Shown here one piece after another: positions 15,398 to 63,592 of a DNA stretch of 64,000 bases. The notes below the pieces were generated by a model, which did no database searches, had not been told where the DNA came from, and saw only the letters and a list, made by a program, of their open reading frames with translations. Position 1 is the stretch's first letter, and the number at the start of each line of letters is the position of its first letter. The position numbers and the translations under genes are program-made. Location of the stretch: assembly GCA_020137815.1 (NCBI GenBank), contig CM035352.1, positions 4,340,001-4,404,000 of the forward strand. The letters run 5' to 3'. The DNA is from Hormiphora californensis (Eukaryota; Animalia; Ctenophora).

Positions 15398-23630
<8,233 letters not shown>

Positions 23631-32206: not shown

Positions 32207-32277
<71 letters not shown>

Positions 32278-32657
32278 CTCGGCTCACCGGTGTATAAAAG
32301 GCTCACCTGTGTATACTCTCTGTACGTGTATGAGCTTTTCATACGCGTATGAGCCTGAAGGCTCATATGCGTATAGAATTTGGCTCACCTGTGTACAAAA
32401 GGCTCATATGTGTATGGAACACTCTCTCGCCCTCCTCTCTATCTGTACATGTTTGAGCCTCAAGGCTCATATCTGTATCACTTCTAAGTAGCTGTGCTCA
32501 TACGTGTATAAATTGCTCATCTGGGTATAACAAGAGAGTTGATGCAGAGAGTTGATACAAAGGTTACTTTCTGTACGCGTATGAGCTTTTCATTACGTAA
32601 TTGAGCTTTTCACTTAAAAGGCCATACAACTTTGATTGAAGATAGACAAGATACCTT

Positions 32658-32697: not shown

Positions 32698-33117
32698 TTA
32701 ATTTTATTTCCAGTACCAACATATCTAGTGTTTACCTTGTTTAATACCTTGTAATGACTGACCACCCCAGACCCATGCGTTAGCGTCTGTCGTCTGATAA
32801 ATAATTATATGCTTCTTCTTTTGAATAATTATATGCTGCACCTTTATACAATATATTTAAATAAATATATGCTTCTTCTTTTGAATCTTATCTTGAGTCT
32901 TCTGTTTTTTCTCCTCAGATTGCTTAAACTTCTTCATTAATTTCTCTCGCAACTCTTTTTCCCGAACTTTACTCGCTTCTGCACTTTTCGCCTGATCTTC
33001 TTGGATATTGACCTTTCCAACGCTACCAAAATTAAAACCAGTTATGTATCTCATTATTATACCAAAACTAATTAGTCGCCCGGAAAGGTTACCCTATTAT
33101 TTTAGCTGCCTTAATTA

Positions 33118-33235
33118 AGACGAAGCAATATTTACCCTGTCAGTTTCACATGATGAATGCCAAGGTGGCAATTAAGCTTAATTGCCACCTTGGCATTCAT
33201 CATGTGAAACTGACAGGGTAAATATTGCTTCGTCT
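33118..33235. repeat. 118-bp perfect spacerless palindrome with degenerate outer arms (~33058-33320)
   Basis: AGACGAAGCAAT...GCAATTAAG|CTTAATTGC...ATTGCTTCGTCT, centred at 33176/33177. Confidence 0.9.
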
Positions 33236-33361
33236 CAAAAGGGAATTCTACTAGTGGCCAAGGTAACTAAAATAATTGGGCAACCTTTTCGACCTGCCAA
33301 TTTTAATTAGATTTCGTATAATTTGCATCATTTTTGGAATTTTTGTCCATGAAAATAAGTA

Positions 33362-33533: not shown

Positions 33534-33899
33534 TATAACTGGTATCTATTTTTATCTCTTTGCTTCTATCTGCCCGGGCATGCCCCCTTTTATTATTTGT
33601 TTAATTAAAATTTGTGTGTCAAAATGTGTGTGTAATAGTGTAGAGACGGTGTCTGAAGTGACAAGGGCCCCTAATACCAAAAACCATCAAGAAAATAAAG
33701 CACCTATCATTTGACAACAGAGCACACACGTTGCCATTCTACAGCAGAGAACAAAACAAGCGCCCATTATTAAGCTCCCAAAATGAGGGCTGCCCTAAGG
33801 GACATAGCTATCAAGTTCCCGGGTGTGTGTTATAAAAAACAAGTTCCCGTTGTGCCGGGCCAGGGAACGAGATTTTTGAACCCTGTATGGTCTTTTTAG

Positions 33900-36287
33900 C
33901 ACCCTTGATAAAACATACATACAAAATGAACCGTAATTGATGTTGCAAATCAGATAGCTCATAGACGTATGAAATGCTCATCAGTGTACGAACAGAGAGT
34001 GCCGTATCTGGTGTTCTAACACATTAATTAGAGTACCTAAGAAACTAGCTCTTTGTTTCTGATGTCTTATTTGTGCCATTAACATAATAAGATCGGCAAA
34101 GGCAATTTCTGAACAGAAAAAAAATTCAAGGCAAAATTTAGGCAAGGGGTACCACTGACATAATTTAACAGCCAAAAATTATATATTGCAGTTTCTTTTT
34201 GAATCTAAGATATGACATTTGTAGCGTTAACACCAACTCGGAGTGAAAATGATAGAAGAAACATCCTATTGGATCTATGTAAAAATCTAATAAACGTTCC
34301 ACTCTCTATACATACACAAATGAGCCATAATGGATGTTGCAAATCAGATGGCTCATAGACGTATGAAATGCTCATCAGTGTACGAACAGAGAGTGCCGTA
34401 TCTGGTGTTCTAACACATTAATTAGAGTACCTAAGAAACTAGCTCTTTGTTTCTGATGTCTTATTTGTGCCATTAACATAATAAGATCGGCAAAAGCAAT
34501 TTCTGAACAGAAAAAAAAATTCAAGGCAAAATTTAGGCAAGGGGTACCACTGACATAATTTAACAGCCGAAAATTTTATATTGCAGTTTCTTTTTGAATC
34601 TAAGATATGACATTTGTAGCGTTAACACCAACTCGGATTGAATAGGATAGAATAAAAATCCTATTGGATCATTGTAAAAATCTAAAAAACGTTCCACTCT
34701 CTATACATACACAAATGAGCCATAATGGGTGTAGCAAATCAGATGGCTCATAGACGTATGAAATGCTCATCGGTGTACGAACAGAGATTGTTGTATCTGG
34801 TTTTCTAGGTCATTTTATCTGTCTCCTGACGCGTCTAGGAGTCTACCGGAGCCACTGCAGGCCTATGGGGCTATAATTATGGGCATACCCGGGACAGTTG
34901 GAGTGTTGGACGTTGGTAAGTTGTTTGTCCGTGTTATGGATCTATTGCAATGATGTTTTGAGCGTAGAACTTCACTCATAATAAAAAGCTACAGATAAAA
35001 AGGTGGTCGCTAAGACAGAACTCGTTACTGTCAAGAACAAGAACCAATGAAATCACTCTCGGCGAGTACTGACCCGAATACTAAAGCTTGCTTCACGATT
35101 ATAAAGGGATGGTGATTCGATCTCTCTACAAGCGCCACGACACGGATGATTTCCAGGGGTTGCCGAGATTTTTTAGCTCTAAAATTTGGTACAGTGGTTC
35201 TACACAATGTGTGAATGGGATTGGCAAAGTTTCCGACTTGAAGCTCAAAATTCATTTTTATGAAATGAACCTCGTTCATTCTCTCAATCATAGTTGTTAG
35301 TCATTGTTGTTACTCAACAACCCAATCAGGAGATCATTTGACTCCAGACTTTTAACTGACGTGTTTGGCAATTGATTATTTATTGAATGCGACCAAGAAC
35401 AGCCAAAACGAGCTACCATAAAGACACACGGTGAATGGTGATCTGATTTCGTCCTCGGCGAACCTGGGAAGTTATGACATAGTGTTGCACGGTTGCCGAC
35501 ATCGTATAGCTCTAAAATTTGGCTGAGTGATTCATAATGGTCATCAGCGACCTCGGATAAGTAGGCTAGTAACTCAACCTTGGGATGGACCCTGTTTCAA
35601 GTGAGATTATTAGTTCAATTGGGATCAGTTGTACTGCAAGTGCTCGGTGCCATAATTGAGTCCGGCAAAGTTTATTCCCCGTGGCGCGTACTTTGGGAGA
35701 TAGCCGGGTGATTTGACCGTAATCACTGGACCATCAGCCAAGAACGTACACGGCAACGTGACTGAGCTCTGTATGGTATTTTTAGCACACGTGATAAAAC
35801 GTACATACACAAATGAGCCATAATGGATGTTGCAAATCAGATGGCTCATAGACGTATGAAATGCTCATCAGTGTACGAACAGAGAGTGCCGTATCTGGTG
35901 TTCTAACACATTAATTAGAGTACCTAAGAAACTAGCTCTTTGTTTCTGATGTCTTATTTGTGCCATTAACATAATAAGATCGGCAAAAGCAATTTCTGAA
36001 CAGAAAAAAAATTCAAGGCAAAATTTGGGCAAGGGGTACCACTGACATAATTTAACAGCCAAAAATTATATATTGTAGTTTCTTTTTGAATCTAAGATAT
36101 GACATTTGTAGCGTTAACACCAACTAGGATTGAATAGGATAGGTTAAACATCCTTTTGGATCTACTTATAGTATGAAAAAAACATTCCATTCTCTATACA
36201 TACACAAATGAGCCATAATGGATCTTGCAAATCAGATGGCTCATAGACGTATGGAATGCTCATTGGTGTACGAACAGAGAGTGTCTC
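33900..36287 (-). repeat. Complex tandem repeat block (~385-bp A units plus a ~900-bp B unit), inverted relative to 54349-59557
   Basis: A units start at ~33925, 34310, 34700 (partial), 35800 and 36190 (partial); the B unit spans ~34800-35730. The same spurious ORFs (MAVKLCQW..., MLHDYKG...) occur on the opposite strand at 55-59 kb. Confidence 0.9.
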
Positions 36288-38211: not shown

Positions 38212-41200
38212 CGCTTTCACTTTCGTACTGCAACAGATCTATTTCTTCATATTTTTTTTCCCGCATCTGGTCATAGGCTTTCAGGTAGTGGGACGCCACT
38301 TTCATGGCTTTACCAGCAGGGAATATGTGATAGCTGAAAATATTTCAGATTATCCATTGTAACACCCGTCGACCCCCCATCTGGCCTTTACACTGTTTTC
38401 AATATATCATACAAATTAATGTGGTTCTGCGGTGAACAATAGGATGTAGAACAATATGAATCATATACTAGTTTATAACTATCCTTGCATATTTATAAGA
38501 ATGAAGTCATTTAGCTCGGTATTCGATGTTAAAAGCTAGGTATAGGGGATACCACCCTCCCTCCTTCAGAGGTCGGTGGGCCATAAATTATTAGTTCAAA
38601 CTCTAAGTCTAATCAAAATACGTTTTCTCTGGTAGTATGGTAGTTAAGGTCGTGCACACTTTTTGGCGCCAACTTGCGCTAAAATATCGCCACTTGGCGC
38701 GACGTGGCGATATTTTAGCGCCGAAATTTGGCGACTGCATACAACCGCCAAATGGCGCCAAAAAGTGCACACGACCTTAACTACCATACTACCTTCTCTC
38801 TTGTACTGCGGTACTGTGGTGTGCCACATCTGCAAGGAGCTGCCGTCGGTTCCCGTTCTTGTCCAAAGGTATCGCGGGATGCGTGTCATATCCTGTAAAA
38901 GTAGTTGTTAGCACAGTTTAGTCATGGTTTTGTTATTGAAAATACACCTTTGCGAGCTCAATCTCGACTGCTACACAGATGTTGTTCGTGTGTGATATCA
39001 ATGTCACCAGGGATATGCAGTTGTACCTGTGACTATGCTTTTTCTGACATCATTGGGACAAAGTACATTATCCTTATGTTTTATTGCCAGATTCTTTGAC
39101 GCGTCGACAATGGTGTCGTTTGTGGTCGTAAACACCTGTTAAGCATGTGAGGTGTTAACATGAAATTACGGTAGCTTTGGGAGCTGTAATATTGCCATCA
39201 CAGAATAATTTTATTCGAACGGTGTGTATGTGGCTCTAGGTTAAAGTGTACCAAACGGTTCGAACGGTTCATATCATTTATCTCATTTATCCGCTCAAAT
39301 GTTATACAGTCGCACCCCGATTTAGGGGCCCCCGATTTAGTGGCACCCCGATTTATAACTTTTTTGCAAAATTTTACAGTACGATTGTCAATGCTTTGAT
39401 CGGTGCTCCCCATAAATTTTGAGAGAAAAAGTTATTTTGAAATTTTGATACTTCCTCACACGCCCGATTCGGCATGGTATCACGTATCGGTTCGTTTCGA
39501 ATCCGCTAATTAGACAGGACATCCAGTAAGCTGCACCGATTCGAAACACACATCGGCCGGGCTGGTATAACTTAGAAAAATTTTCAAATTTTTTTGAAAA
39601 AAAAAACTATTTTATATTTTTCTATTTCTTATCAGAAATGATGATGTCATCAATACATGAATATTGCAGATAACAGTTAGAGGTGTCTTTAGTCTTAATA
39701 ATATAGCATTTTGGGCATAAAATAGGTTTTTATGGGCCAAATATGGCTCACCCCGATTTAGTGGACAAGACCCTTTACCCCGAGGGTGTCCCTAAATCGG
39801 GGTCCAACTGTAGTTAAATTTCACACAATTATAATTAATCAAGGTTTTATTATTTTGATAACAGAGATTAATATCATCTAGGACAATTGAGACCACTAGA
39901 GTAAAATGGGGCTATTTAGTTCACAAAACCATATTTAATACACGGGATAATTTGAAAAGGATCAATATCCTCCTTCCTTGAGTCGTTTGACACTGAACAA
40001 TTCAACTCCTTCAAATGTGCCCAAGATTCGCAAATTGGTTTAGAAATGGCTGAGTTATGGTAAAAATGTGAAGAACCGCTTACCCCAGTTACAAAGATAA
40101 AAATCCTTACTGACAGCAGTTTTAAAGCGAAAATTTGAAACTGCATTAGCAGGTCCATGCTGGAGACTAAATTGGCGTGACACACGTATTTCTACTGTCA
40201 AAAATGTTTTGCACTTTACCAAATGGCCGCAGTTTATCCAAGTTTATTCGAACATGCTTCTCGAACTTACATACTCCGTTGGATTGTCATTCTCCGTTAT
40301 TCGGATGTAGTGAAGTAATGCCCGGTGAACGAAGACATTAGCACAAACATATTTCGAACCAAATTTCTTCCAATTTTTGTGCTTTCCTCTTCGGCCACCC
40401 ACGTTTCTTTTGTTTGGTTCTGTAAATAAACTATAGTTATCTTTACTGTAGTTAATAGGTCCTATGAACTACTATTATAGTCATCTCTATAATTTGAGAT
40501 GATTGACATCATATCACAATTATATTCTCGTTATTGGTGTGTAAAAAATTAAAAAAATTAAAAATTAAAAATATACTGCCAATTACCTTTCACTGACTTC
40601 GTCTTATACATAAAAATCCGTCCTTTTGTCCCGCAGTTTTTTTTGTAGGGGTTCGTCACGTCCTCTTTTTTCAGACTGGTGACCTCACTGCGATATACAT
40701 TTAATCATTAATTAGATGTGTTTAACTTATCAAACTAAAACTATTAGAAATAACGGCATGGTGGTTTAGTGGCTACTACACTCACATCTCTTAGTAGGTT
40801 TGATCCGTAAACCGTCTAGTCTGCCAAGGTATAATTGGTAGCAGCTCTAATTAATTAAGAGATAGAAATGTAGCGCCATGGCTTGATTTTATCTTATTAT
40901 CTAAAAATAAGGCGACCCAAGATAACTTACCCGAAAATTAACTTAAATTTACCCTTCTAAGTTAGTTTTAAGTTGCCTTATTTTTAGATGCAGTCGGACG
41001 CCGATTTACCGTGATGAAAAGCTTCCCCGATATAGGAAATTATAGTTTGGAAAGATACAGAAAACTTTTCTTCTTTATTACAATGGTGGGCATAAAATAA
41101 ACAGCCGCCCTAGACTAGCATAGTTCCAGATATCGTAGAGCTCTGAAATTTTACATTTGAAAGACAATTCTTTGACTTCTGAATCGAAAAAACCATTCTT

Positions 41201-44200
41201 TGTGGAATGAATGACAATGTTCATTTCGATATCTGGAACTATGCTAGTCTAGGGCGTCGTCCTACACTGACTGTACACTACACTGACTGTACACGCGAGG
41301 CCGCTTCGCGGCCTCGCGTAGCTGCACCGGGCCTTCGGCCTGGTGCGGAGAGGAGGGTCACATATATGAGACAACTAGGGCGGCTGTTTATTTTATGCCC
41401 ACCATTTATCGATTTTCAGGAATTTAAATTTTTTTCTCGAAAATATGTATGACGAGATGACGAGATGTAAATATATGCGTGGCTCAGCAGTAGAACCCGC
41501 TATGATATTGTAATATCAAAAAATCTGAAAAAAAGTCTTCAAAATTCGAAAAATAAGAAAGAAGAAACGTTTTCCCCAAGCATCCTGTTTAATCGGGGTC
41601 CTGTATATATTACAGTCGCCTACCTCTTAGCAAGGGCGAATTAGCCAAAATAACCTCAAATTAGTGGCAAAATTTGTAACAAGCTTATTCCTTCACTAAG
41701 TGACCCTAATGTGTCCCCCAAATCACCAAAAAAGATCCAGCCGATCGGAGTTGCTGAAGACCCTTATTTCCGGGTAGGCGTGGCACCTGTATTTTCAGCC
41801 TGAGGCCAAAACCATGAGTAACCTTAACATAGGAGTAGAGATAAAATCGAGGGCACTAGCAATGTATAGCTAGGGGAAATGTATAGCAATGTGAAGCTAG
41901 GGGAAATGTATAGCAATGTATAGCTAGGGGAAATGTATAACAATGTATAGCTAGGGGAAATGTATAGCAATGTATAGCTAGGGGAAATGTATAGCAATGT
42001 ATAGCTAGGGGAAATGTATAGCAATGTATAGCTAGGGGAAATGTATAACAATGTATAACTAGGGGAAATGTATAGCAATATATAACTAGGGGAAATGTAT
42101 AGCAATGTATAACTAGGGGAAATGTATAGCAATGTATAACTAGGGGAAATGTATAACAATGTATAGCTAGGGGAAATGTATAGCAATGTATAGCTAGGGG
42201 AAATGTATAGCAATGTATAACTAGGGGAAATGTATAGCAATGTATAACTAGGGGAAATGTATAGCAATGTATAGCTAGGGGAAATGTATAGCAATGTATA
42301 GCTAGGGGAAATGTATAGCAATGTATAGCTAGGGGAAATGTATAGCAATGTATAGCTAGGGGAAATGTATAGCAATGTATAGCTAGGGGAAATGTATAGC
42401 AATGTATAACTAGGGGAAATGTATAACAATGTATAACTAGGGGAAATGTATAGCAATGTATAACTAGGGGAAATGTATAGCAATGTATAGCTAGGGGAAA
42501 TGTATAGCAATGTATAACTAGGGGAAATGTATAACAATGTATAACTAGGGGAAATGTATAGCAATGTATAACTAGGGGAAATGTATAGCAATGTATAGCT
42601 AGGGGAAATGTATAGCAATATATAACTAGGGGAAATGTATAGCAATGTATAACTAGGGGAAATGTATAACAATGTATAGCTAGGGGAAATGTATAGCAAT
42701 ATATAACTAGGGGAAATGTATAGCAATGTATAACTAGGGGAAATGTATAGCAATGTATAGCTAGGGGAAATGTATAGCAATATATAACTAGGGGAAATGT
42801 ATAGCAATGTATAACTAGGGGAAATGTATAACAATGTATAGCTAGGGGAAATGTATAGCAATATATAACTAGGGGAAATGTATAGCAATGTGAAGCTAGG
42901 GGAAATGTATAGCAATGTATAGCTAGGGGAAATGTATAGCAATGTATAGCTAGGGGAAATGTATAGCAATGTATAACTAGGGGAAATGTATAGCAATGTA
43001 TAACTAGGGGAAATGTATAGCAATGTATAGCTAGGGGAAATGTATAGCAATGTATAGCTAGGGGAAATGTATAGCAATGTATAGCTAGGGGAAATGTATA
43101 GCAATGTATAGCTAGGGGAAATGTATAGCAATGTATAGCTAGGGGAAATGTATAGCAATGTATAACTAGGGGAAATGTATAACAATGTATAACTAGGGGA
43201 AATGTATAGCAATGTATAACTAGGGGAAATGTATAGCAATGTATAGCTAGGGGAAATGTATAGCAATGTATAACTAGGGGAAATGTATAACAATGTATAA
43301 CTAGGGGAAATGTATAGCAATGTATAACTAGGGGAAATGTATAGCAATGTATAGCTAGGGGAAATGTATAGCAATATATAACTAGGGGAAATGTATAGCA
43401 ATGTATAACTAGGGGAAATGTATAACAATGTATAGCTAGGGGAAATGTATAGCAATATATAACTAGGGGAAATGTATAGCAATGTGAAGCTAGGGGAAAT
43501 GTATAGCAATGTATAGCTAGGGGAAATGTATAGCAATGTATAACTAGGGGAAATGTATAGCAATGTATAGCTAGGGGAAATGTATAGCAATGTATAGCTA
43601 GGGGAAATGTATAGCAATGTATAACTAGGGGAAATGTATAACAATGTATAACTAGGGGAAATATATAGTGATCAGCGACCTCGTATTAGTGGGGAATTAT
43701 GTCTCTATCTCATTTGGTTTATAAGATAATTGGATAATTAGGTTTGCACATTTACCGTTTTTTTGGCTATATGATTATGACTATTACCACTTAGGAATTG
43801 GTTTGAGACATTTCAATGGTGCCATTTTGTTCAGAAAGAATTTTTAATATATGTAATAGACAATAGTTGTGCAAAAATTTAGTTAATTGTCCTAGTTTGA
43901 CCGCTAATAACGCCAGAACGGTAAGAGATAGGCCCTAAATTTTTCCACAACTCTTCTCAACAAAATGGCACCAACGAAAAGTATCTAAACCATTCCTAAG
44001 TGGCTCCTTAGGGTCACTTAGTGAAGGAATTAGCTTGTTACAAATTTTGCCACTAATTTCGGCTTTTTCTCCCTAATTTTCTGCTTGCTTTTTTAGAAAA
44101 TACCGCGATGATATGGATGAGACGTCACGTCGGGACGTAGTTTCACTTTTCAGTGGTCTGACAAATCTTAATCATAAATAGTCTTACCCAGCTCTAACGG

Positions 44201-47200
44201 GGCCAAGCAGTAAGAGGGCTGTGAGCAGTTTGTTTCGAATTCTGTTCTTATTCGTTTTTTCCTTGAATGCCCAGTCTGTTTCATACAGAAAACGTGCGAA
44301 TATTTCCATAGGTACCCGTTTAGCTTCGTCTTTTTCCATATTGTCATGGAAGACTTGCTGAAATGTAAGTTCGTTAGGTTAAATCGAATGTGTTGGGGCA
44401 AAGCGTATCAAAATAAGTTGAGGTGAGCGGTTTGAGCATTTAAATACCAATCGAATGTCTAAATATTTCAGTTTTCAATGTTGTTGGATTGATATATTCC
44501 TTACTATTTGGTCCTCCTGCCAACTTTTAGTTGTTCTTGTCTGTCGTTTCAGATTTGCGATTGTCACTTCCAAAGTGTGTACTTTTTCATCGCCTACAAT
44601 GATATTAGGATAACTCGAGCACACTTTGGTCACAATATGGCCACTTTAAGGGGGCAACATTCGTACTTACTCATTGGTAGCTTATTTGCACAGTGCTCAA
44701 GGAAATTCCTGAAGTAGGATCGATAATCAGATTTTCCCTTAGGTCCGACTTTCCCTTCTCCATTCGTTGATGGCATCCTGTCAATTGTCATGTCGACAAA
44801 AGTGGATAGCCCTGGGATGAATAAAAAACCTTGCCAGCTGAGGAAAGATTGTATAACGTGTCTTGCTTTTTTATATAGGAAGAGGTACTAGAATAAAATC
44901 AAACAATACATACTTACTCCATTTCCTGCAGGTCGTACCCTGCGAACTGCATCACATTGGGTAAAATTCTCCTTAGTGCTCTTATCTTCTTGGACACAGT
45001 GTTGTCCGATGTCAAGTTTGTCTGAAACAAGTAATTTTTCTCTGCTAACATTTGGTATTAGGGTAAGGACCAAACATTTCGTGGGGGGGAGGGGTATTCC
45101 TTTTCCAATAGTTAGTCTAAGAGGTTAGGAATACTTATTTGCTGAAACTATAGCTCACCTCGCCTAGGGATTCGAGTAGGACTTTAAGGTCTGGCGGAAA
45201 TTTGCTCAGCGGTAAAGTTGGTAAATACTTTGGTGTTGATATGTCATTGGCAGCCCTGAAAAAGTGTTGTTAATTCCGATAGCACCGTACACCAAACTTT
45301 TTCATTTTAAATCGTCTTTTTTGACTGTTTTTTGGTCATAACTCGTGATTGGATTGTCAGAACATCTTAAAACCGGTTTCAAGATGATCCAAGCACTCGG
45401 GTGTGTACCAATAGTGGTCCTGACTATATAATAACTCGCTATTATAGTACTGTAATAGCGAGGTCCTGTAATAGTGTAATAGTGAGCTATTACAGGAGTA
45501 CCCTCGTATCAGTAGGGTAAGCTGGGGTAAAAGTGGCCCATTTTTAACGTTTTAGGTTCTAAAATATGCAATTTATACAACAGGAAGAAAAAATACATAT
45601 ATACTTTAAAATTTTGACGGTCGCGTTGGATGATAAAATTTTAACATGCTGTCAGTGTCAAAATCGCGCGCGAGATTGTTACTTTTAGAATGGGGGAGAG
45701 AAATTTTAACGGCCGCTGGTGTGTGAGGGTTTAAAATCAAAATTTTAATTTTAATTTCAACTTTGGTGTGTGGTGACCCTTACCCCGCCCCGGGTCAATT
45801 TGCCCCAGCTTACCCTATATACATTGTCAGTCGTTCCACCGCTAATGAGATTTACCGAATCGTGAGCAATACCCCATATCGACTGATATTGTAAATGAAT
45901 CGCTAATGAGCTACACCGAATCGAACACTGTACAGTGTACAGTGTACACTGTACACCGACACGGAGTCTACTCCGGTCTCCGTATCGGTTCACACACCTG
46001 ATCTGTCTCTCTGATCAGCTATCTCTGTCTTTCTTGGGAGGAATAGGGAGCAACGGGTATTTGTACGGTCGGTTAAACTTGGAAGTGGTTTGAAGAGCAA
46101 AGAGAGTCAGTGTCAGGCTCTGATTCTCTCCTCTCTACTCTCTCCTCTAAAGTTCTATCAGGAGCCACATACACTGAACGGAAAGTCTCTGACTCTTTCA
46201 GCCGTGCTGCCTTACCCAGGATCGCCCTAACACTCCCTCTGCTCCTCTAAACCACTTTCACTGTACCCGTTCCTCCCTGTTCCTACCAAGATAGCTGAGA
46301 GACACAGAAAAAGAGACAGGGACAGATCATGACAGAGACAGACAGAAACAGAGACAGAGGGGACCGTTTCGGTGTGTGAACCGATACGGAGACCGGAGTA
46401 GACTCCGTGTCGGTGTACAGTGTACAATCCGTATCGGTTCATGATTCGGTTACCGGTGTAGCTCATAATTAGCGATACGTTTACAATATCAATGTCACGG
46501 GACTATAACGAGGGTGAGGGCAAGAGTCTCAGCTATTGCATGGTTCCCTTACATTTTATTCTAAATCTAAAATGACTGAGCAGCATGCTTGTTTATGGAC
46601 CTTGGCGTGTTTGCTCGTCTCGCGAGTACGCTCGCGACTAGCAAATACGACATGCAGAATACACCCTGATTACAGTACTGTAATAGCGTGTCAAGATTCC
46701 TCCGATCTGCCCCGTTAAATTGGGGGCCAGCTATTTTACCTCTCTTTTTCGGTAGCAGGACTTGGCGGAGATTGTTGAGTTTCAGAATTCTCGGCCTCAT
46801 CGTCAGTCTCTGGTCTGAAATATGTTTATATATATTATATAAGTTTATAACAATCAAAGAATTGAATATAAAGAAACAGGCCTTCCCTGAATTGGTCCAC
46901 CTAAAAAAGTTACATGCATTAAGTTGCATAGCAAGGAGTAAGAGCTAAGAATGTTGAATGAAAATAATTCGGTTCAATTGCCTTAGCGGGTCATCTTTTA
47001 TGAGCCATTTAATTGAAAAGAATAATACTTTTTGCCGTTAACTATTTTCTTTTTGATTTTGAAGCCCACTAAAATCGTAGAGAAATTAAGAGAGGATTAC
47101 CCCTATTAGGACACACGAACTGTAGGGCTGTTCAAAGAAAAAACTGTAATTACTCGAGGTACACACCAGTGTCCTTTCTTATCTCCATATGGTTACAGGT

Positions 47201-49099
47201 AAATACTGCCGTCTATAAAAAAATATTTATTTGATTGCGTTTACTCACTTTGAAGATAACATACGGTGTATCTCTTTGTCATCGAGTAGCAGCCCTTTCT
47301 TTTTACAAAACTCGGACAACAGATAAATCTGTTGTCCCGACGTTATTTTGTTTCTTATCCCGTGCACTATTTCAAAGTGCCTTCTTGCCTGTTAAAAATC
47401 TTGGTGAAACATTTCTCATGTGAACATGGAGGGGTTTGTGGGCAAAGCGGTTTAATTGGAGTGAGTGGGGTCCTTCTGCTGATTACCTTATTACCCACCT
47501 TATCACCCGCTACACATAAACTCGTTTTTGTTGATTATATAATTTTTAGTTAAAAACAATTCTTTATAGTCACTCCTAAATTTGTCAAGAAACCCGATAT
47601 TAACTTAGTACTGTGTTATTTTAAATGACTGAGACTGCTCTATCTCAAATTGTGTAAAAACTATGGCATCTTTCGACTTCAAATTTTGGGACACGATAAA
47701 ACATAATTTCTCATTTATTTTCCAGATTTTCAGAAAGTTTTCGTGTTCCTGAATGAACTTATTGCCATAAAACCTCTTCCAACTGTACACAGTCATATCT
47801 CTGGAGTCTAATGAGATAGAGAGTTCAGATTTTTAGGAGAGACAGATAAGACGATTTTGAATGTTTTGTCTGCTTTACGAGTTGATAACTTTTACCGTCT
47901 GTCCACGGAACGGTTTAAAGTGATGTAACACGCTCTAATTAGGCCAAATTTAGGTCATTTCACCCCTCAAAGATCACATGTCCAGCTGATTCTAGTGGGC
48001 TAATGAGGCCTCTTACACGAATTCGTCACGTGTTACTGCAAAGATACCGCTCTCCTTTTTCACCTTGACCAAGCAGACATGATCATGGTGTCTGGAAGTG
48101 GTAACAAGCTGTAGGGGGGGGGGTGACACGTAACACTTTGTAACACTTTGTAACATGTAACGTGCACAAAAAGTTTTCTGCACATGTTACATAGTGTTAC
48201 ATAGTGTTACATAGTGTTACAAAGTGTTACATAGTGTTACAAAGTGTTACATAGTGTTACAAAGTGTTACAAAGTGTTACATAGTGTTACATAGAATCAG
48301 CTGGACATGTGATCTTTGAGGGGTGAAATGACCTAAATTTGGCCTAATTAGAGCGTGTTACATCACTATAAACAGTTCCTGTGAACAGACGGTAAAAGTT
48401 ATCAACTCGTAAAGCAGACAAAACATTCAAAATCGTCTTATCTGTCTCTCCTAAAAATCTGAACTCTCTATTTCATTAGACTCCTGAGATATGACTGTGT
48501 AAAGTTGGAGGAAAATCTGGGAGAATAAATGAGAAATTATGTTTTATCGTGTCCCAAAATTTGAACTCGAAAGACGCCATAGTTTTTACACAGTTTAAGA
48601 TAGAGCAGTCTCAGTCATTTAAAATCACACAGTATATATGACAATGTACAATGATTATCTACACTAACATTTTTTTTCGTCCCTGAGGTGCCACACGATG
48701 GGCATATCCAATGTCCAGGTCCAGTTGTTCCTTGAAACACTGCCAAGTCCTCCCAAAATTTTACATACTTTTTTCTTTCATCAACTGGCTGAAAATAGGA
48801 GTTATTAAAAAAAGTATATATCAAACACCAAGTAAATTGCACCTCGCACTGGATGCGATGTTGGGATTTTTATTGGGATGGTTCCAAAATGTCCCGTCAC
48901 CAGCTCTGATCACAAATTACGATGCATCACCACACCCATAATATTATATCCAATAGTTATATACATACATATCTCTGATATAATGTCTTACCCAGGGGGC
49001 CAGCTTGCAACGTTGAAGGTGTCGCAGGTGCTGATTCGAAATTGTCTTGGAACAATATGGACAGTCAGCACTATCCCGTTTTCTTTTTCTTGATTTTGT
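38212..49099 (-). CDS. Spliced zinc-finger tyrosine recombinase (phage-integrase/XerC-type fold), at least 14 exons and 550 aa; 5' end and last exon unresolved
   Basis: Exons 49099-48992, 48788-48669, 47388-47249, 46814-46740, 45255-45159, 45021-44918, 44837-44671, 44593-44505, 44357-44188, 40687-40587, 40419-40271, 39135-39027, 38892-38793, 38333-38212. All are GT-AG and phase-consistent, with no stops (1651 nt). Motifs: CPYC-x9-HLQRC and CPSC...RRHFEIVH zinc fingers; RNKLLTALLLLGPVRAGEVTSLKKEDV (Arg I); HKNWKKFGSK (Lys); EYVFTT; CPNDVRKSIVT (HxxR-equivalent); LLADVAHHSTAVQERSY (His, Tyr nucleophile). The terminal exon is probably at 38005 (DPPVW...) or 37612 (DG*). Confidence 0.88.
38635..38789. 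mobile_element. 155-bp palindromic MITE inserted at a recombinase splice donor
   Basis: TA|GTATGGTAGTTAAGGTCGTG...CACGACCTTAACTACCATAC|TA. Confidence 0.8.
39307..39810. mobile_element. Longer pogo/Tigger-like MITE (CAGTC..CCCCGATTTA family) in a recombinase intron
   Basis: TA|CAGTCGCACCCCGATTTAGGG...CCCTAAATCGGGGTCCAACTG|TA. Confidence 0.8.
41083..41406. mobile_element. IR element nested in a degenerate pogo-like MITE (~40991-41603), carrying two GC-rich hairpins
   Basis: AATGGTGGGCATAAAATAAACAGCCGCCCTAG is mirrored at 41375-41406. Hairpins lie at 41293-41319 and 41324-41346. Confidence 0.7.
41630..44090. mobile_element. TIR element enclosing the 27-bp minisatellite
   Basis: AATTAGTGGCAAAATTTGTAACAAGCT..TTCCTTCACTAAGTGACCCTAA (~41659-41709) is mirrored at ~44007-44058. 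Confidence 0.65.
41857..43665. repeat. 27-bp minisatellite, about 67 copies (TAGCAATGTATAGCTAGGGGAAATGTA)
   Basis: Directly visible. The unit length is a multiple of 3, which produces the spurious LYISPSYTL ORF. Confidence 0.97.
45515..45815. mobile_element. MITE (GGGTAAGCTGGGG termini, TA TSD) with a nested Harbinger-like fragment
   Basis: TA|GGGTAAGCTGGGG...CCCCAGCTTACCC|TA. Confidence 0.75.
45880..46492. mobile_element. Inverted-repeat element (~115-bp imperfect arms) in a recombinase intron
   Basis: GTACACCGACACGGAGTCTACTCCGGTCTCCGTATCGGTTCACACAC is mirrored at ~46373-46420. Confidence 0.7.
47611..48632. mobile_element. ~1-kb foldback element with TA TSD and an internal 10-bp (GTGTTACATA) array
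   Basis: TA|CTGTGTTATTTTAAATGACTGAGACTG...CAGTCTCAGTCATTTAAAATCACACAG|TA. Arms are ~340-380 bp. Confidence 0.85.
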
Positions 49100-49120: not shown

Positions 49121-49534
49121 GACCGGGTCCAGACGAGTGGTAGGTAGCTACTATGGCAGGGTGCTATGGCAGGGTGCTATGGCAGATGGGTACTGTCCAG
49201 ACGAGTGGTAGCTAAGCTACCATAGTAAGCCATCTACCACTCGTTTGGACACCCTCTGACACAAATCAATCATCGGGGGTATCAAATTTCTCATGCCCCA
49301 TAGAAGTAAAGTTGCAATGGTAGGTTGTTAGAGGCTGTCCACTGGACAGTGTCCAGACGAGTGACACCCTACTCTTGCACCCTGCCATAGCAGGGTGTAA
49401 TAGCAGGGTGTAATAGGCCGAGGTGTAACACCCTGCAATGGTAGATATAAGTGTCCAGACGAGTGGTAGGTATGGTAGATATCTACTATAGCACCCTGCC
49501 ATAGTAGCTACCTACCACTCGTCTGGACCCGGCC
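49121..49534. mobile_element. Harbinger-like MITE (G(A/G)CCGGGTCCAGACGAGTGG termini)
   Basis: GACCGGGTCCAGACGAGTGGTAGGTAGCTACTATGGCAGGGTGCTAT is mirrored at ~49488-49534. Confidence 0.75.
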
Positions 49535-51300
49535 TAAAAAGAGTTGTGAAGGGGATAACTGACCGCTGAGAAGGTCGGATCACATACTTTCTCCGGTGAG
49601 ATGTGCTGACTGTCCATATTGTTACAAGGCAATTTCGAATCAGCACCTTTCTGATTTGCTATCTCTGGTATCTCACTATGGGGGGGGGGGGGTATTAGTA
49701 AAGAGTGATTAGATAGATATTTGGTAGTAATTAGACACAGCTATACCACCCTCTCGGTACTGTCAAGATGACAGTTACTTACCTGCACGTAGTAGGTATC
49801 TCTGTCGTAGGCCGAGGTGTAACACCCTGCAATGGTAGATATAAGTGTCCAGACGAGTGGTAGGTGTGGTAGATATCTACTATAGCACCCTGCCATAGTA
49901 GCTACCTACCACTCGTCTGGACCCGGCCTAAAAAGAGTTGTGAAGGGGATAACTGACCGCTGAGAAGGTCGGATCACATACTTTCTCCGGTGAGATGTGC
50001 TGACTGTCCATATTGTTACAAGGCAATTTCGAATCAGCACCTTTCTGATTTGCTATCTCTGGTATCTCACTATGGGGGGGGGGGGTATTAGTAAAGAGTG
50101 ATTAGATAGATATTTGGTAGTAATTAGACACAGCTATACCACCCTCTCGGTACTGTCAAGATGACAGTTACTTACCTGCAAGTAGTACTAGTAGGTATCT
50201 CTGTCGTAGGCCGAGGTGTAACACCCTGCAATGGTAGATATAAGTGTCCAGACGAGTGGTAGGTGTGGTAGATATCTACTATAGCACCCTGCCATAGTAG
50301 CTACCTACCACTCGTCTGGACCCGGCCTAAAAAGAGTTGTGAAGGGGATAACTGACCGCTGAGAAGGTCTGATCACATACTTTCTCCGGTGAGATGTGCT
50401 GACTGTCCATATTGTTACAAGGCAATTTCGAATCAGCACCTTTCTGATTTGCTATCTCTGGTATCTCACTATGGGGGGGGGGGGTATTAGTAAAGAGTGA
50501 TTAGATAGATATTTGGTAGTAATTAGACACAGCTATACCACCCTCTCGGTACTGTCAAGATGACAGTTACTTACCTGCACGTAGTAGGTATCTCTGTCGT
50601 AGGCCGAGGTGTAACACCCTGCAATGGTAGATATAAGTGTCCAGACGAGTGGTAGGTGTGGTAGATATCTACTATAGCACCCTGCCATAGTAGCTACCTA
50701 CCACTCGTCTGGACCCGGCCTAAAAAGAGTTGTGAAGGGGATAACTGACCGCTGAGAAGGTCGGATCACATACTTTCTCCGGTGAGATGTGCTGACTGTC
50801 CATATTGTTACAAGGCAATTTCGAATCAGCACCTTTCTGATTTGCTATCTCTGGTTTTTTATAGGGGTGGGGGGGGGATTGTAAAGGGAGGGATTAGATA
50901 GATATTTGGATAATAACCCATTTTATCCCCCTTGGTATGGAAAAGTTTACATTAAAATTTACTGACGGGGAAGAGGATTCGTTTTTACCGGGTTAAACAC
51001 CCTGCAAGGAGTATAGGTCCAGACAGTGGTGGTTGGAATTCTCTTTTAGACCCCCCATGTGCTCTACCATGGGTTTGGACCCCCCTAAAAAAATTAAGGG
51101 GTTTTAAACACCGCGGGAGAAGGGTCATACACTTTTCCCCGGGGGAAGTTATCCATATTGTACAAAAATTTTAACGCATTTTGTTTTGCATCTTGGGTAT
51201 CCATATGGGGGGGGGTATTGTGATTGATAGATAGAATTTGGTAAAATTGACCAGCAAACCCCCTTTTCGGTACTGCGGACGTACTTACCTGAAATAGGTG
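49414..51300. repeat. ~395-bp tandem array (nearly 4 clean units, then degenerate sequence)
   Basis: GGCCGAGGTGTAACACC at 49416, 49810, 50209 and 50602. Identity collapses abruptly after ~50853. Confidence 0.92.
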
Positions 51301-51539
51301 AATTTTTATAATATTTTTTGACCGAATTTTAAGTATTTCCCTTAGAAATGGGGAAAGAACCTGTTTTTAAAAAAAAATCAATACCTTATTTAATTGCGTC
51401 TAATTTTTAAGTTAAGCTCCCTTTTCTCTTTTCCCTCTTCAAACAAGCAAACTAGAAAAAGCAAGGGATAGGAACCAAAACCCCATTTTATGGTTTCGTT
51501 AATTTTATTGAAAGTACCTCATTGGGGGGATTTGGCATA

Positions 51540-53290
51540 GCAATTTATAGTTACCCTGCCCATTTGTACCAGTCAACTATTCATTCGCAGTTACCCTGCC
51601 TTTATGTACCACATCCCCATTATTTGCATTTTCCTGCCATACTTGACCGTAACATATTTTCATTCTGCAGTTATCCCCCATTTTTGACCAGCCCCCCTAT
51701 TTCGCTGAGTTCCCCTTTTATTTTGTTTTTATCAGTCCACCATTTTCATTCGCTTTTACCCCTAATTATTGTCCCCAGTCACACTAGTTCATTCTGCATT
51801 TATTCTGCGATAGGTATCATCATCCTAGCTCATTCTGCAGTTCTCCTGTCTAATTTTTCATTGTCCCAGTCACACCTTTCATTCCATTCCCCCGCCTTCA
51901 TTTCCAGTCACACCTTTCATTCTGCTTACCTGCTTCATTCTACACCCACACATATTTTCATTTTTAGTTTTCTGTCGATATGGTATCAGTCATCCTAGCT
52001 ATTCTGCGTTGTCCGTCTATTTTTCATTGTACCATCACCCTAGTTCTTCTGCTTTACCCGCATTATTGTACATCACACCTAGTTCATTTGCATTACCCTG
52101 CCTATCATTGTACCTGTCATATGTTCAATGCGTTACCCTGCCCATATTGTACCATCCACCATTTCTTCTGGTACCCGCCCTCAAAATTGAAACCAGTAAA
52201 AACCTAGTTCTTTCTGCAGTTCCCTGCCTATCATTGTCCATCCACCTATTTTCTTCCAGTTCCCCTCCCTATCATTGTCCATTTACACATTTCATTCTGC
52301 GTTACCCTGCCTTTTTGTACCAGTCACACCTATTTCTAGCATTTTTCCCCTGCCCATCATTGTACCACACCCTTTCATCTGCATTATTCTGTCGATCAGG
52401 GTTCAGTCATACCTAGTTCATTCTGCAGTTGTCCTGAAATTTTACCTTGTACCAGTCATACCTTTTTTGCATTCCCCCTGCCTTCATGTCCCATCCCCCT
52501 TTTTCTTCTGGTTCCCCCCTATCATTGTACCCCCACACATAGTTCTTCACGTTTCCCTGCCCATCTTTGTCCCGTCCCCCTGTTCATTCTGCATTTTCGG
52601 TCGATAGGTTCATCATACCTTTCAACTGCATTTGTCCTTCAAATTTTATTTTGTACCGTCACCTTTTTCATTCCGCATTTCCCCTGCCTATCATTGTCCG
52701 CCCCCCTAGCTCATGGTTCCCTGCCCATCTTGACCGTCACCCCTATTATTCGGCGTTATTCTGTGTTTGGTATCAGCCCCATTAGTTCATTCTGCATTTG
52801 CCCTTTTAAATTTTATCATTGTACCATCATCCCTATTTTCTGCATTCCCTCCCTATCTTCCGTCACACCTATTCTATGCGTTCCCCCTCCCATATGTCCG
52901 CCCACCTGTTCATTTGCATTACCCTGCCTACATTTAACAACAAGTTAAAATTCTCCATTCCCTCCCCATTGAACCATCCACCTATTTCATTCGCAGTTTT
53001 TCTGTCGCAGGGTTCAGTCATCCTTTTCTACGTTTGCCGTCTAATTTTATCATTTACCACTTATTTTCTTCTGATTATTTCTGTCGATCATGGTACCAGT
53101 CATACCTAGTTCATTCTGCAGTTGTCCTGTCTAATTTTATCATTGTACCAGTCATACCTAGTTCATTCTGCAGTTACCCTGCCTATCATTGTACCAGTCA
53201 CACCTAGTTCATTCTGCAGTTATCCTGCCTATCATTGTACCAGTCACACCTAGTTCATTCTGCAGTTATCCTGCCTATCATTGTATCAGT
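51540..53290. repeat. ~46-bp satellite (CCTAGTTCATTCTGCAGTTACCCTGCCTATCATTGTACCAGTCACA); clean at 53090-53290, noisy upstream
   Basis: CCTAG recurs at 53157, 53203 and 53249. Degenerate copies are recognisable back to ~51540. Confidence 0.8.
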
Positions 53291-54229
53291 CAATTAAATT
53301 TAATGTTTCAATCTAGCTTCTGTGAAGTGTGAAGTTTTAACTAGTGTGAAGTTTTAACTAGAAGTTCCTTTAGAAGGACCGCGGAAAGGGATGACGTTAT
53401 CGTAGATCAAATCTGATGACAGATTCGGAATCATCGTGAAAAAATACGTCTAGTCGCTTCTATACCAAAAAAATGATTTCAAAACCCAACACTCTGACAC
53501 CCTGATTATATGTTCTCGAATATTGGTATTTGAGGCGGATTTAAGTTGCATTTTAGTGAAGGGAAGAGCTAATATTGGACAAAAATGTAGCCATAATTTA
53601 GTAATGAGACCAGGCCAGGCCGGACAGGCAGTTCAGTGGTAACTAGGATGTCATGTGTGTTGGAAATGAGAACTAGATACAGATTTGAGTTGCATTTTAT
53701 TGAGGAAAATAGCCCTTTTTGGTATCTGAGACAAGCAAAAGTGACACGAAATGCCACGTAACGAACGAGTAAACGGTTGTTCAGACATCTTTAATCATGA
53801 ATCAAAGATAGAGCAAGTTGCTAGCGATCAGTGGCTGCGGATAGGATACTAGAGGCGTGGGGAAAACTAGGGTACTAGAGATCAGAGAACGAAACACAGG
53901 ATAAACCACTGTAAACGGTAAATTACATTGTTGTAACGCGAGAAACTTTCAACTTTTATATTATATATTTAATAAAATATATTCCATCTAAATATAGTTA
54001 AACAATGGTGTTGGTAATAAACAATCAGTACATAAAAACAGACATGCTCAAACACCACACTAAAACAAAAGGTCGGGGTAAAGAATGGGTTGTGTGAACA
54101 GGGGGTGAAGTGTGAATGTAAGACTTCCACAACGTCCCCGTTTCATATTTCGTTCACAGGTGACAACGATCACGTAAAATAACACACACACACACACCTT
54201 CCTGAGATCGTGCCTAAGTGATGTAGACG

Positions 54230-54349
54230 ATGACTACTCTCTGTTTATTGGACATTGGTGGTGATCTAAACTTCCCGGATATTGACTGGAGTTCCAATTC
54301 GGAGAGAGGAAAAGGTTCAGACTCTTGTTCCTTATTCTCGCTCATGGCT
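54230..54349 (+). mobile_element. Fragment of a LINE (CR1/L2-type) APE endonuclease
   Basis: Translation LDIGGDLNFPDIDWS matches the GD(L/F)NxPxIDW endonuclease motif. It is truncated by the repeat block. Confidence 0.7.
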
Positions 54350-57300
54350 GATTACGGTCAAATCACCCGGCTATCTCCCAAAGTATGGGGAGTAAACTTT
54401 GCCGGACTCAATTATGGCACCGAGCTCAATTGCAGTACAACTGATCCCAGTTGAACTGATAATCTCACTTTGCCAGAGACCTTGTCGGACTCAACTATGG
54501 CACCGGGCTCTTGCAGTGCAACTGATCCCAATTGAACTAATAAATCTCACTTGAAACAGGGTCCATCCCAAGGTTGAGTTACTAGCCTACTTATCCGAGG
54601 TCGCTGATGACCATTATGATTCACTCAGCCAAATTTTAGAGCTATACGATGTCGGCAACCGTGCAACACTAGGTCATAACTTCCCAGGTTCGCCGAGGAC
54701 GAAATCAGATCACCATTCACCGTGTGTCTTTATGGTAGCTCGTTTTGGCTGTTCTTGGTCGCATTCAATAAATAATCGATTGCCAAACACATCAGTTGAA
54801 AGACTGGAGTCAAATGATCTTCTGATTGAGAGAATGAACGAGGTTCATTCCAGTCATAAAAATGAATTTTGAGCCTTAAGTCGGAAACTTTGCCAATCCC
54901 ATTCATACATTGTGTAGAACCATTGTGTTGTCGAAGTTGTGACTACCGTGACCTATATATGAACCATTTTAGGGTAAAATGTGGTACAAATACGACAAAC
55001 TATATACAAAGACTAAAGTAGAATAGAAACTATTGTAATCCATAATAAACGCTACCACTAATATAACTCAAGGGAGACGGTCCTGTGACCGTTTCCTAAC
55101 CCTAACACATAATGTCCATGTTCATCACGCCTAGTCATAACTCGACACTGATCTAAACTCTCCTAAGTTCGTAGATCTCAGAAGTGAGCAGTCCCGATCC
55201 CGTCTTATCCTCTCTCCCCTCTCTCGCCACGTAGCCCTTGTGCTCGCCACGTCTGTAGGCATAACAACCCATGTTATGAGACGTCAATCCTCTTTCTCGT
55301 AATGCAGAATCCTTCCAGAGAATAATAGTAGAGAAAGCAGGCCAATTGATGTCAGGGAGGAGGATGAGTCATCGTAACCTTACCACTGCACCACTTATAT
55401 CGGGATACCGTATAAGAAAATAGAAAGGGGGTTAGAAGGGGGTTAGGATCATATAATCCCGATAACATCGGCGACCCCTGGAAATCATCCGTGTCGTGGC
55501 GCTTGTAGAGAGATCGAATCACCATCCCTTTATAATCGTGAAGCAACCTTTAGTATTCGGGTCAGTACTCGCCGAGTACTGGCCCGACAGTTATTTCATC
55601 GGTTCTTGTTCTTGACAGTAACGAGTTCTGTCTTAGCGACCACCTTTGTATCAGTAGCTTTTTATTAGGAGTGAAGTTCTGCGCTCAAAACATTATTGCA
55701 ATAGATCCATAAAACGGACAAACAACTTACCAACGTCCAACTGTCCCGGGTATGCCCATAATGGCCCCATAGGCCTGCAGTGGCTCCGGTAGACTCCTAG
55801 AGGCGTCAGGAGACAGATAAAATGACCTAGAACACCGGATACAACACTCTCTGTTCGTACACCGATGAGCATTTCATACGTCTATGAGCCATCTGATTTG
55901 CTACACCCATTATGGCTCATTTGTGTATGTATAGAGAGTGGAACGTTTTTTAGATTTTTACATAGATCCAATAGGATGTTTCTTCTATCATTTTCAATCC
56001 GAGTTGGTGTTAACGCTACAAATGTCATATCTTAGATTCAAAAAGAAACTGCAATATATAATTTTTGGCTGTTAAATTATGTCAGTGGTACCCCTTGCCT
56101 AAATTTTGCCTTGAATTTTTTTTCTGTTCAGAAATTGCTTTTGCCGATCTTATTATGTTAATGGCACAAATAAGACATCAGAAACAAAGAGCTAGTTTCT
56201 TAGGTACTCTAATTAATGTGTTAGAACACCAGATACGGCACTCTCTGTTCGTACACTGATGAGCATTTCATACGTCTATGAGCCATCTGATTTGCAACAT
56301 TCATTATGGCTCATTTGTGTATGTATAGAGAGTGGAACGTTTTTTAGATTTTTACATAGATCCAATAGGACGTTTCTTCTATCATTTTCAATCCGAGTTG
56401 GTGTTAACGCTACAAATGTCATATCTTAGATTCAAAAAGAAACTGCAATATATAATTTTTGGCTGTTAAATTATGTCAGTGGTACCCCTTGACTAAATTT
56501 TGCCTTGAATTTTTTTTCTGTTCAGAAATTGCTTTATTATTGGTTTATTACTTTATTATTGGTTATTATTATGGTAGCTCGTTTTGGCTGTTCTTGGTCG
56601 CATTCAATAAATAATCGATTGCCAAACACATCAGTTGAAAGTCTAGAGTCAAATGAGCTCCTGATTGAGAGAATGAACGAGGTTCATTTCATAAAAATGA
56701 ATTTTGAGCTTCAAGTCGGAAACTTTGCCAATCCCATTCACACATTGTGTAGAACCACTGTACCAAATTTTAGAGCTAAAAAATCTCGGCGACCCCTGGA
56801 AATCATCCGTGTCGTGGCACTTGTAGAGAGATCGAATCACCATCCCTTTATAATCGTGAAGCAAGCTTTAGTATTCGGGTCAGTACTCGCCGAGTACTGG
56901 CCCGAGAGTGATTTCATCGGTTCTTGTTCTTGACAGTAACGAGTTCTGTCTTAGCGACCACCTTTGTATCAGTAGCTTTTTATTAGGAGTGAAGTTCTAC
57001 GATCAAAACATCATTGCAATAGATCCATAAAACGGACAAACAACTTACCAACGTCCAACTGTCCCGGGTATGCCCATAATTATAGCCCCATAGGCCTGCA
57101 GTGGCTCCGGTAGACTCCTAGACGCGTCAGGAGACAGATAAAATGATCTAGAAAACCAGATACAACACTCTCTGTTCGTACACCGATGAGCATTTCATAC
57201 GTCTATGAGCCATCTGATTTGCTACACCCATTATGGCTCATTTGTGTATGTATAGAGAGTGGAACGTTTTTTAGATTTTTACATAGATCCAATAGGATGT

Positions 57301-59557: not shown

Positions 59558-60025
59558 CAACATATGAAGGTCCAGAAGACTCATAGAAGGCCCGGGATAG
59601 CCATAGTGACACCGGTGCCTCCAGCGCCACTATGTGTCACTCTGGTCTAGAGGATCTATAAAGGTCCATAAAAGCACCAGATCGCCAATAGCGGCTCCTG
59701 CAATAAAAGCCTCACCGGCTGCTTGTAGTGGCATTACTGTAATGGAAATACAATACGCAGACGCATCGTTTCTGTAACGCGTGGGTGTAAAGCACACTTT
59801 TTTAACCATGTTAAAGGGCCTAAAAACCCAATTTTTACTTATTTATTTTGAACACTTTACACTCCATCGTAACATTGGAGTCCCAAAAAATATAGATACA
59901 CACCCCACGGGCCCCAGTTGAGCCAAGGGGAGCCCCTCAAGTTGGAATGGGGCTAAATTCTAGTTCTCGGTCGATATTCTCTTTCGAAGTAATTCGCTTT
60001 TTGCAAAATATATAATACTCTCTAA

Positions 60026-60283
60026 GGGGAAACTCTAACTGAATGGCATCCCATTAATGGGATCCCATCAGCAGTACAACTCTAACTGATAATGAACCAC
60101 AGTGATGGTTCTTTCTCTGTATTCTCTCTGTAGCAGTACATTGGGCATGCCCGGGCATTGATTGATTGGGCGCGCACACAGAGAGAATACAGAGAAAGAA
60201 CCATCACTGTGGTTCATTATCAGTTAGAGTTTTACTGCTGATGGGATCCCATTAATGGGATGCCATTCAGTTAGAGTTTCCCC
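60026..60283. mobile_element. PIF/Harbinger-type MITE with TAA TSD
   Basis: TAA|GGGGAAACTCTAACTG...CAGTTAGAGTTTCCCC|TAA, with ~105-bp arms. Confidence 0.88.
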
Positions 60284-60442
60284 TAATGATACACCTATGA
60301 GCCTTTTTGGTGCTCTCTGGCAACCTCTCTTATTATACACAAATGACCCTAAAATACACGTATGAGCCTCTGCATGTTTTGAAACGGGCTCATATGCGTA
60401 TGCCTTTTCCACCCAATTCCATACGCGTATGAGCCGAGGCGA

Positions 60443-61080
<638 letters not shown>

Positions 61081-63477: not shown

Positions 63478-63592
<115 letters not shown>

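Follow-up and report, generated by a model that had tools for sequence, protein, structure and literature searches.

The window, that is, the whole stretch of DNA that was analysed, comprises 64,000 nucleotides of the ctenophore Hormiphora californensis (assembly GCA_020137815.1, contig CM035352.1, positions 4,340,001 to 4,404,000). On its minus strand lies a gene predicted to encode a zinc-finger tyrosine recombinase (YR), split into many short exons. The gene is situated inside a 28.2-kb unit (32273-60445), whose inverted ends each adjoin a (CT)n microsatellite. The coordinates of all features are collected in Table 1.

The predicted spliced minus-strand frame had 553 codons and no internal stops, and consisted of 14 exons of 75-170 nt plus a terminal exon 15. 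The 14 exons had GT-AG ends, with all phases agreeing. Donors matched 5.0 of 6 consensus positions, as opposed to 3.3 for random GT. In 20,000 random draws from this region, no draw came up to the donor or the acceptor score of the gene. Further support for the joins comes from box I and the second zinc finger, neither of which exists until two exons are joined. A read run guessed to be RNA matched the window in only three short repeat pieces. An AATAAA was found at 37429, past the stop in exon 15. A candidate exon near 48110 was dropped, as it sits in a miniature inverted-repeat transposable element (MITE) and disrupts the second finger. Judged from its sequence, this is a real and well supported model of a cryptic YR gene, with at least 15 predicted exons. 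A first-pass annotation, made from the letters of the window, had proposed 14 short in-phase exons of 75-170 nt, a protein of ~550 amino acids without stops and a series of protein motifs, and we recovered all of these, the motifs in the order given. The gene boundaries had to be revised. The proposed start (49099) is a splice acceptor without an ATG, from which the frame runs on upstream, and the proposed end (38212) precedes the actual stop.

The finger in exon 1 had an RNF220 match with an E-value of 2.6e-4, under the Pfam cut-off. The second finger, C-x2-C-x11-H-x4-H, is created across the exon 2/exon 3 junction, and its zinc-ribbon matches in Pfam were all sub-threshold. Upstream of exon 1, a 393-bp tandem repeat carries a two-exon module with the phases 0-2-0. 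Three complete units join in frame to exon 1 (49102), and one module copy has a 6-nt insertion which keeps the frame. The interpretation of this repeat as a plain satellite was dropped, because its splice sites and phases fit the recombinase gene. A further, degraded unit reaches 51088, with 77% identity. The region 50900-53300 is degenerate, with this 77% copy followed by a decayed 46-bp repeat. It looks like poorly corrected assembly, and the start codon may be hidden there. The stretch of exon 1 that codes for the finger (49026-49071) recurs as an inverted 46-nt copy (96%) in every upstream module exon, at 49603-49648, 49997-50042, 50396-50441 and 50789-50834. Both orientations of this stretch would therefore be translated from one strand, and an mRNA hairpin is possible. 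The 44-nt core of the inverted copy is bounded by a 7-bp inverted repeat.

For the recombinase identity, two profiles were built from bacterial YR loci, one with 57 catalytic domains and one with 77 longer sequences. The spliced product scored 20.5 bits against the first (best of 1000 shuffles 7.2, reversed sequence -1.5) and 20.0 bits against the second (best shuffle 9.5). Residues 186-373 aligned to the longer profile, from the core-binding domain into box I. A global hhalign comparison with the 77 longer YRs gave a probability of 89 and an E-value of 2.6e-7 over 297 columns, and placed Arg356, Glu359, Asn469, Arg472, His503 and Tyr512 on XerD-type active-site positions. The YR identity proposed in the first pass is thus borne out by profile scores and hhalign. 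Tyrosine recombinases have an R-K-H-R-H/W-Y active site. Here, the first arginine (Arg356), the acidic residue (Glu359), the second arginine (Arg472), the His/Trp of box III (His503) and the tyrosine (Tyr512) are all kept. The earlier statement that most catalytic residues are intact holds for these five, and fails for the histidine of HxxR, which is Asn469.

Searches for protein relatives used short single-exon queries, hence they were weak. None of the 14 exons, scanned one by one, matched a YR family in Pfam. There were no matches to DUF3504, for which pieces of 24-57 amino acids have little power, and none to DUF3435 or GCR1_C. Word-index searches among longer proteins returned seven candidates for exon 9 and one for exon 11, none of which scored. 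A phmmer search with exon 9 against 1.84 billion representatives gave two matches, to a C-type lectin repeat and a HEAT repeat protein, both rejected as repeat-driven. The PDB sequence search gave only chance matches, ESM Atlas nothing at ≥0.9, PHROGs no match for nine exons, and Rfam no match. Exon 9 had no relatives among metagenome and viral contigs, and the marine metagenome run X7 contained nothing matching the window.

The ends of the 28.2-kb unit are marked by a 14-bp inverted repeat. Within the 64 kb, exact copies of this 14-mer were found only at 32273-32286 and, inverted, at 60430-60443 (chance mean 0.17, allowing up to two mismatches). When 44 microsatellite flanks were compared in all 946 pairs, no non-simple match was longer than this one. 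The two CT tracts share one strand, which is what the splitting of a single tract would produce. When the ends are joined over the shared CTC, they form a perfect 30-bp palindrome with 11-bp arms and an 8-bp spacer, the spacer length being given exactly by the asymmetric extra bases of the right end. This geometry matches a standard YR site, with arms of 11-13 bp and a spacer of 6-8 bp (as described in the available part of PMC3212892). Another (CT)n tract, at 63590-63601, leads into nine bases that match the right terminus, either the end of a related element or a chance match. A 19-base pattern from the right end had eight matches in metagenomes, all GC-rich and lacking a microsatellite or the motif described below, and these were rejected as chance; there were no viral matches.

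The unit also carries a 13-bp motif, GCTCAYNNNNGTA, with 47 copies in the window compared with 0.67 expected by chance. All 47 are terminal, 25 in the left 4.0 kb and 22 in the right 4.6 kb of the unit, with none in the 19.5-kb middle and none in the 35.8 kb outside. The most frequent spacing is 19 bp (tandem) or 38 bp (back to back). Many copies come from tandem duplication of a 395-bp unit, leaving 21 distinct versions. In a self-comparison, the left composite repeat was the inverted counterpart of the right one, with 82-97% identity.

Apart from the recombinase, no other gene was recognised inside the unit in 38 frames and a both-strand exon scan, which small exons could escape. The 38 frames revealed no reverse transcriptase or DDE transposase, and the absence of reverse transcriptase, integrase and polB noted in the first pass stands for the frames scanned. 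They gave one sub-threshold trace resembling a LINE (long interspersed nuclear element) endonuclease near 54227-54451 (E-value 0.01) and one weak unrelated match. Capsid, polymerase and packaging ATPase genes were not recognised, there being no long frames or family matches in the unit. Neither were cargo genes, nor a reverse transcriptase/RNase H accompanied by split or inverted terminal repeats, as in DIRS/Ngaro. The introns contain at least seven hairpin or satellite insertions, confirming the earlier report of intronic insertions, but not its count of at least ten.

The gene was compared with that of a second organism (organism B, read runs X8 and X11 from one sample), represented by contigs of ~1 kb that stop short of the unit flanks. 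Exons and introns matched, and the intron-13 MITE was absent. Substitutions were counted where the differences seemed completely recorded, the exon 7-8 part being possibly incomplete. The ratio of replacement to synonymous substitution rates (dN/dS) was 0.23 over the 89 codons compared in exons 14 and 13 and part of exon 12. Adding exon 8 and the end of exon 7 brought the total to 130 codons, with 18 synonymous and 15 replacement changes, and gave a ratio of 0.20 (binomial P 4e-5). With synonymous sites as the yardstick, these values agree with the purifying selection suggested before. A dN/dS below 1 between lineages looks the same for a host gene and for an active transposon enzyme. Among the differences listed, Arg472, His503 and Tyr512 were unchanged in organism B; Arg356 was not clearly covered. 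Exons diverged more than introns (21/272 versus 17/426 sites, Fisher p 0.04). In 38212-39080 and 44505-44705, synonymous divergence (0.16-0.34) was much higher than intron divergence (0.04), which is unexplained. By the intron rate the replacement changes are near neutral, therefore the selection estimate hinges on the synonymous sites. An exon-9 contig of organism B (44214-44238, X8) had a depth of 91, compared with 9-13 for neighbouring gene contigs, possibly reflecting several copies of this catalytic exon. A second individual of the same species (run X5) shared the MITE junctions and had two synonymous and no replacement changes among the differences listed. One of its contigs passes from intron 12 (38933) into 27-bp satellite sequence, a possible polymorphic intronic insertion.

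We consider that the YR probably mobilises the 28-kb unit as a microsatellite-inserted DNA transposon. The first pass had left two options, a domesticated recombinase or the mobilising gene of an undescribed large YR element. The second is now better supported, because the gene lies in a bounded unit with inverted termini in a microsatellite. In the mechanism we propose, the core-binding and catalytic domains would bind the 11-14-bp terminal arms, and Tyr512 would cut and rejoin them via a phosphotyrosine. The unit would be excised as a circle, with a junction of two 11-bp arms around the 8-bp spacer. The circle would then integrate into (CT)n through the 3-bp CTC common to spacer and target. 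Circle excision and integration by short target homology have been put forward for Cryptons, with support in the case of CryptonF and Starships, in the available parts of the respective papers (PMC9977147, PMC10104507, PMC13465315). More speculatively, the zinc fingers may bind the 13-bp motif arrays as arm-type sites and so assemble the complex. By inserting into microsatellites and staying at low copy number, the lineage would last long enough to collect introns and MITEs, with selection still acting on the frame.

Several observations weigh against this reading. The YR signal comes mainly from box I and the part upstream of it. Residues 401-553 alone scored 3.1 bits, reached by 30 of 2000 shuffles, and residues 441-553 alone -0.1 bits, reached by 269 of 2000. 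The C-terminal part being weak by itself, boxes II and III are assigned from the order and spacing of their motifs. The catalytic lysine is uncertain, Lys391 being aligned in one alignment and lying in a lysine-rich region. The His-II position of HxxR, occupied by Asn in the window, is Ile in organism B. Catalysis nevertheless appears plausible, because Cre tolerates both residues at His-II: in the available part of that study, all but five His-II substitutions recombined in vivo, with moderate activity for Asn and weak activity for Ile (PMC2943603). The start codon was not located in the degenerate 5' region. At the termini, the repeat common to ends and target is only the 3-bp CTC, blurred by the microsatellite, and the right end also allows a reading as a 16-bp inverted repeat with a single mismatch, which a DDE transposon could have left. 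Recognition of the motif by the zinc fingers is purely conjectural. The gene looks low-copy, with a depth in run X1 of 30-46 over its unique parts against thousands at the MITEs, read without a host-gene yardstick. No second copy, empty site or circle was seen, although the whole genome was not searched. Finally, the MITE-laden structure shared with the second individual suggests long residence.

Part of this evidence is also what a domesticated recombinase would leave, an old, immobile element from which the host keeps the YR, with the termini as a shell or a substrate. Domestication remains the main rival, although we regard it as unlikely. It draws support from the low depth in run X1, from a gene of at least 15 exons with a dN/dS of 0.2, and from a structure that is the same in two individuals from different studies, differing among the listed changes by the two synonymous ones. 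The exon-intron layout is likewise the same in organism B, where the intron-13 MITE is missing, but the short contigs of that organism do not show an insertion site in common, and the depth of its exon-9 contig is a weak hint of several copies. Moreover, a lineage that still transposes would be expected to keep its termini exact and intact and its motif copies, 47 here, conserved, and the broad, if weak, single-exon protein searches gave no relative, as an old conserved host gene might.

The termini themselves could belong to a DDE-type transposon moved in trans, with the YR gene as cargo or bystander. Terminal inverted repeats and subterminal motif arrays are common in DDE elements, and the ends allow the 16-bp reading mentioned above. 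In addition, animal Cryptons are described without terminal repeats in the available text of PMC3212892. We consider this explanation improbable, as the 38 frames scanned inside the unit bore no trace of a transposase, the sole gene recognised is a recombinase, and the extra bases at the right end give exactly an 8-bp spacer. Least probable of all, and by our estimate very improbable, is the reading that an endogenous DNA virus (nimavirus- or Polinton-like) has shrunk to its integrase, or that the copy died recently and had its 5' end scrambled by tandem duplication. The missing ATG and the repetitive, degenerate upstream region would fit such a copy, and nimaviral YRs can have a C2H2 domain and several exons and target microsatellites, according to the available part of PMC10871703. 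However, the scanned frames contained no capsid, polymerase or other viral gene, viral contigs yielded no relative, and the tandem module keeps its frame, including the 6-nt in-frame insertion.

Host genes (amidase, DGCR6) were recognised outside the unit, to its left. The charged low-complexity gene between them may be MAP7-like. An open stretch of ~54 amino acids on the minus strand (32860-33021), charged and coiled-coil-like, lies close to the unit's left end and may be the terminal exon of a second gene. It matched no family, and a word-index search gave 28 candidates, none of which scored. Large near-perfect foldback palindromes (89-98% self-complementary) are present at 1-1183, 8501-10096, 25503-26452, 33115-33238 and 60025-60284.

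Table 1 Features of the 64-kb window, with positions counted from its first letter.
Feature	Position	Strand	Remarks
Amidase gene	4584-13175	-	Pfam E 5e-8
Charged low-complexity host gene	15530-23630	+	outside the unit
DGCR6	24993-27153	+	host gene outside the unit
Left (CT)n tract	32209-32274	+	presumed target, flanks left end
Left 14-bp terminal inverted repeat	32273-32286	+	first 3 bases merge into CT tract
Left terminal array	32282-32586		11 copies of GCTCAYNNNNGTA, often 19 bp apart
Left subterminal composite repeat	33877-36284		395-bp units, 3 motif copies each (14 in total), plus non-motif DNA
Exon 15, coding part	37612-37605	-	2 codons + TAA
Exon 14	38333-38212	-	Tyr512, codon 38332-38330, predicted nucleophile
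Palindromic MITE in intron 13	38631-38793		absent from organism B (joint there 38625-38797)
Exon 13	38892-38793	-	His503
Exon 12	39135-39027	-	box II: Asn469 at His-II position, Arg472
Exon 11	40419-40271	-	catalytic domain
Exon 10	40687-40587	-	Glu359; candidate catalytic Lys391, uncertain
Inverted-repeat insertion in intron 9	41639-44078		27-bp satellite 41857-43668, 67 copies
Exon 9	44357-44188	-	box I, Arg356
Exon 8	44593-44505	-	part of predicted core-binding domain/linker block
Exon 7	44837-44671	-	part of predicted core-binding domain/linker block
Exon 6	45021-44918	-	part of predicted core-binding domain/linker block
Exon 5	45255-45159	-	part of predicted core-binding domain/linker block (exons 5-8)
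Exon 4	46814-46740	-	linker, acidic and proline-rich
Exon 3	47388-47249	-	with exon 2 builds second finger
Exon 2	48788-48669	-	with exon 3 builds second finger
Exon 1 (first exon of first-pass annotation)	49102 (or 49099)-48992	-	basic patch and C-x2-C-x10-H-x3-C finger; no ATG
393-bp tandem repeat (two-exon module)	49414-51088	-	in frame, ~44 aa added upstream per unit
Module exon A copies	50618-50575, 50225-50176, 49826-49783	-	44 or 50 nt
Module exon B copies	50468-50381, 50069-49982, 49675-49588	-	88 nt
Right subterminal composite repeat	54349-59562		three tandem 1.3-kb units, 18 motif copies
Right terminal array	60290-60434		4 motif copies
Right 14-bp terminal inverted repeat	60430-60445	-	repeat 60430-60443 plus 2 extra bases before CT tract
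Right (CT)n tract	60446-60630	+	same strand as left tract

Going beyond the single unit, we tentatively propose, at somewhat short of even confidence, a new lineage of giant animal DNA transposons. Its members would be tens of kb in size, specific for (CT)n and mobilised by one heavily spliced zinc-finger YR, through a circle with a palindromic attachment site and arm-type arrays read by the fingers, as a counterpart of the fungal Starships. If this is true, large YR-driven DNA transposons would extend from fungi and crustacean viruses to an early-branching animal, and such a family would be invisible to annotation based on open reading frames and homology. A recombinase inserting ~28 kb into a simple repeat would also interest genome engineers. 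It would also be a rare case of the enzyme, the target and the candidate attachment and accessory sites all being legible at one locus, which makes the long-proposed circular intermediate of eukaryotic YR transposons directly testable. This intermediate is presented as hypothesised and not demonstrated in the available text of PMC10104507. A word of caution is that intron-rich transposon enzymes under purifying selection can pass for domesticated genes until their ends are found.

Our literature search found no description of a ctenophore YR element, with Repbase Reports and most subscription journals outside its coverage. The first-pass list of animal YRs (Cryptons, DIRS/Ngaro and Polinton-like viruses) was incomplete. 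Also published, in the parts of the papers available, are nimaviral YRs (PMC10871703), the bracovirus int-1 and vlf-1, which wasp genomes retain and circle excision requires (PMC8549517), and, in bird ATF7IP, a Crypton YR that may be catalytic (PMC3212892). A resident YR with its catalytic residues intact would therefore be no first. The domesticated DUF3504 genes (ZMYM2-4, KCTD1, QRICH1, KIAA1958) are likewise intron-rich, zinc-finger YR derivatives of animals. The accessible description has all of them without the catalytic tyrosine and second arginine (PMC3212892), whereas the YR in the window keeps both and sits between element-like ends. Nimaviral YRs resemble it in combining C2H2, SAM-like and YR domains, in being multi-exonic in some cases, in inserting into simple repeats and in having five of seven key residues located. 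In the available text they belong to crustacean viral genomes of hundreds of kb (PMC10871703), while the 28-kb unit has no recognised viral genes.

Starships share with the unit their large size, the single YR, a terminal inverted repeat and a target-derived direct repeat, the latter being only 3 bp here (PMC10104507, PMC13465315, as far as available). They are, however, fungal, with a DUF3435 captain as the first gene at the edge and with cargo genes, whereas the unit is from an animal, has its YR in the centre and no recognised cargo. Cryptons in the wide sense (CryptonA/I/F/S) are similar in having a YR as sole enzyme, no reverse transcriptase, short homology between terminus and target and a proposed circle, and intron gain occurs in the Glomhoppers (available parts of PMC3212892, PMC13465315, PMC9977147). 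Cryptons are simple elements with a 4-6-bp direct repeat matching the target, described without terminal inverted repeats in what is available of PMC3212892. The unit shares a 3-bp CTC with its target, blurred by the microsatellite. It differs in its 14-bp terminal inverted repeat and in a YR with N-terminal zinc fingers and a tandem exon module. In its target, it most resembles CryptonV, YR DNA transposons of cnidarians, some of which insert specifically in microsatellites (Kapitonov and Jurka 2012, as cited in PMC8869645 and PMC5753468, in part). The two may or may not be kin, and the features of the unit to set beside CryptonV are its 28-kb size, the 14-bp inverted repeat, the motif arrays and the gene of at least 15 exons. 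Taken together, the 28-kb element appears to work like a CryptonV or a Starship, and we place it in no family.

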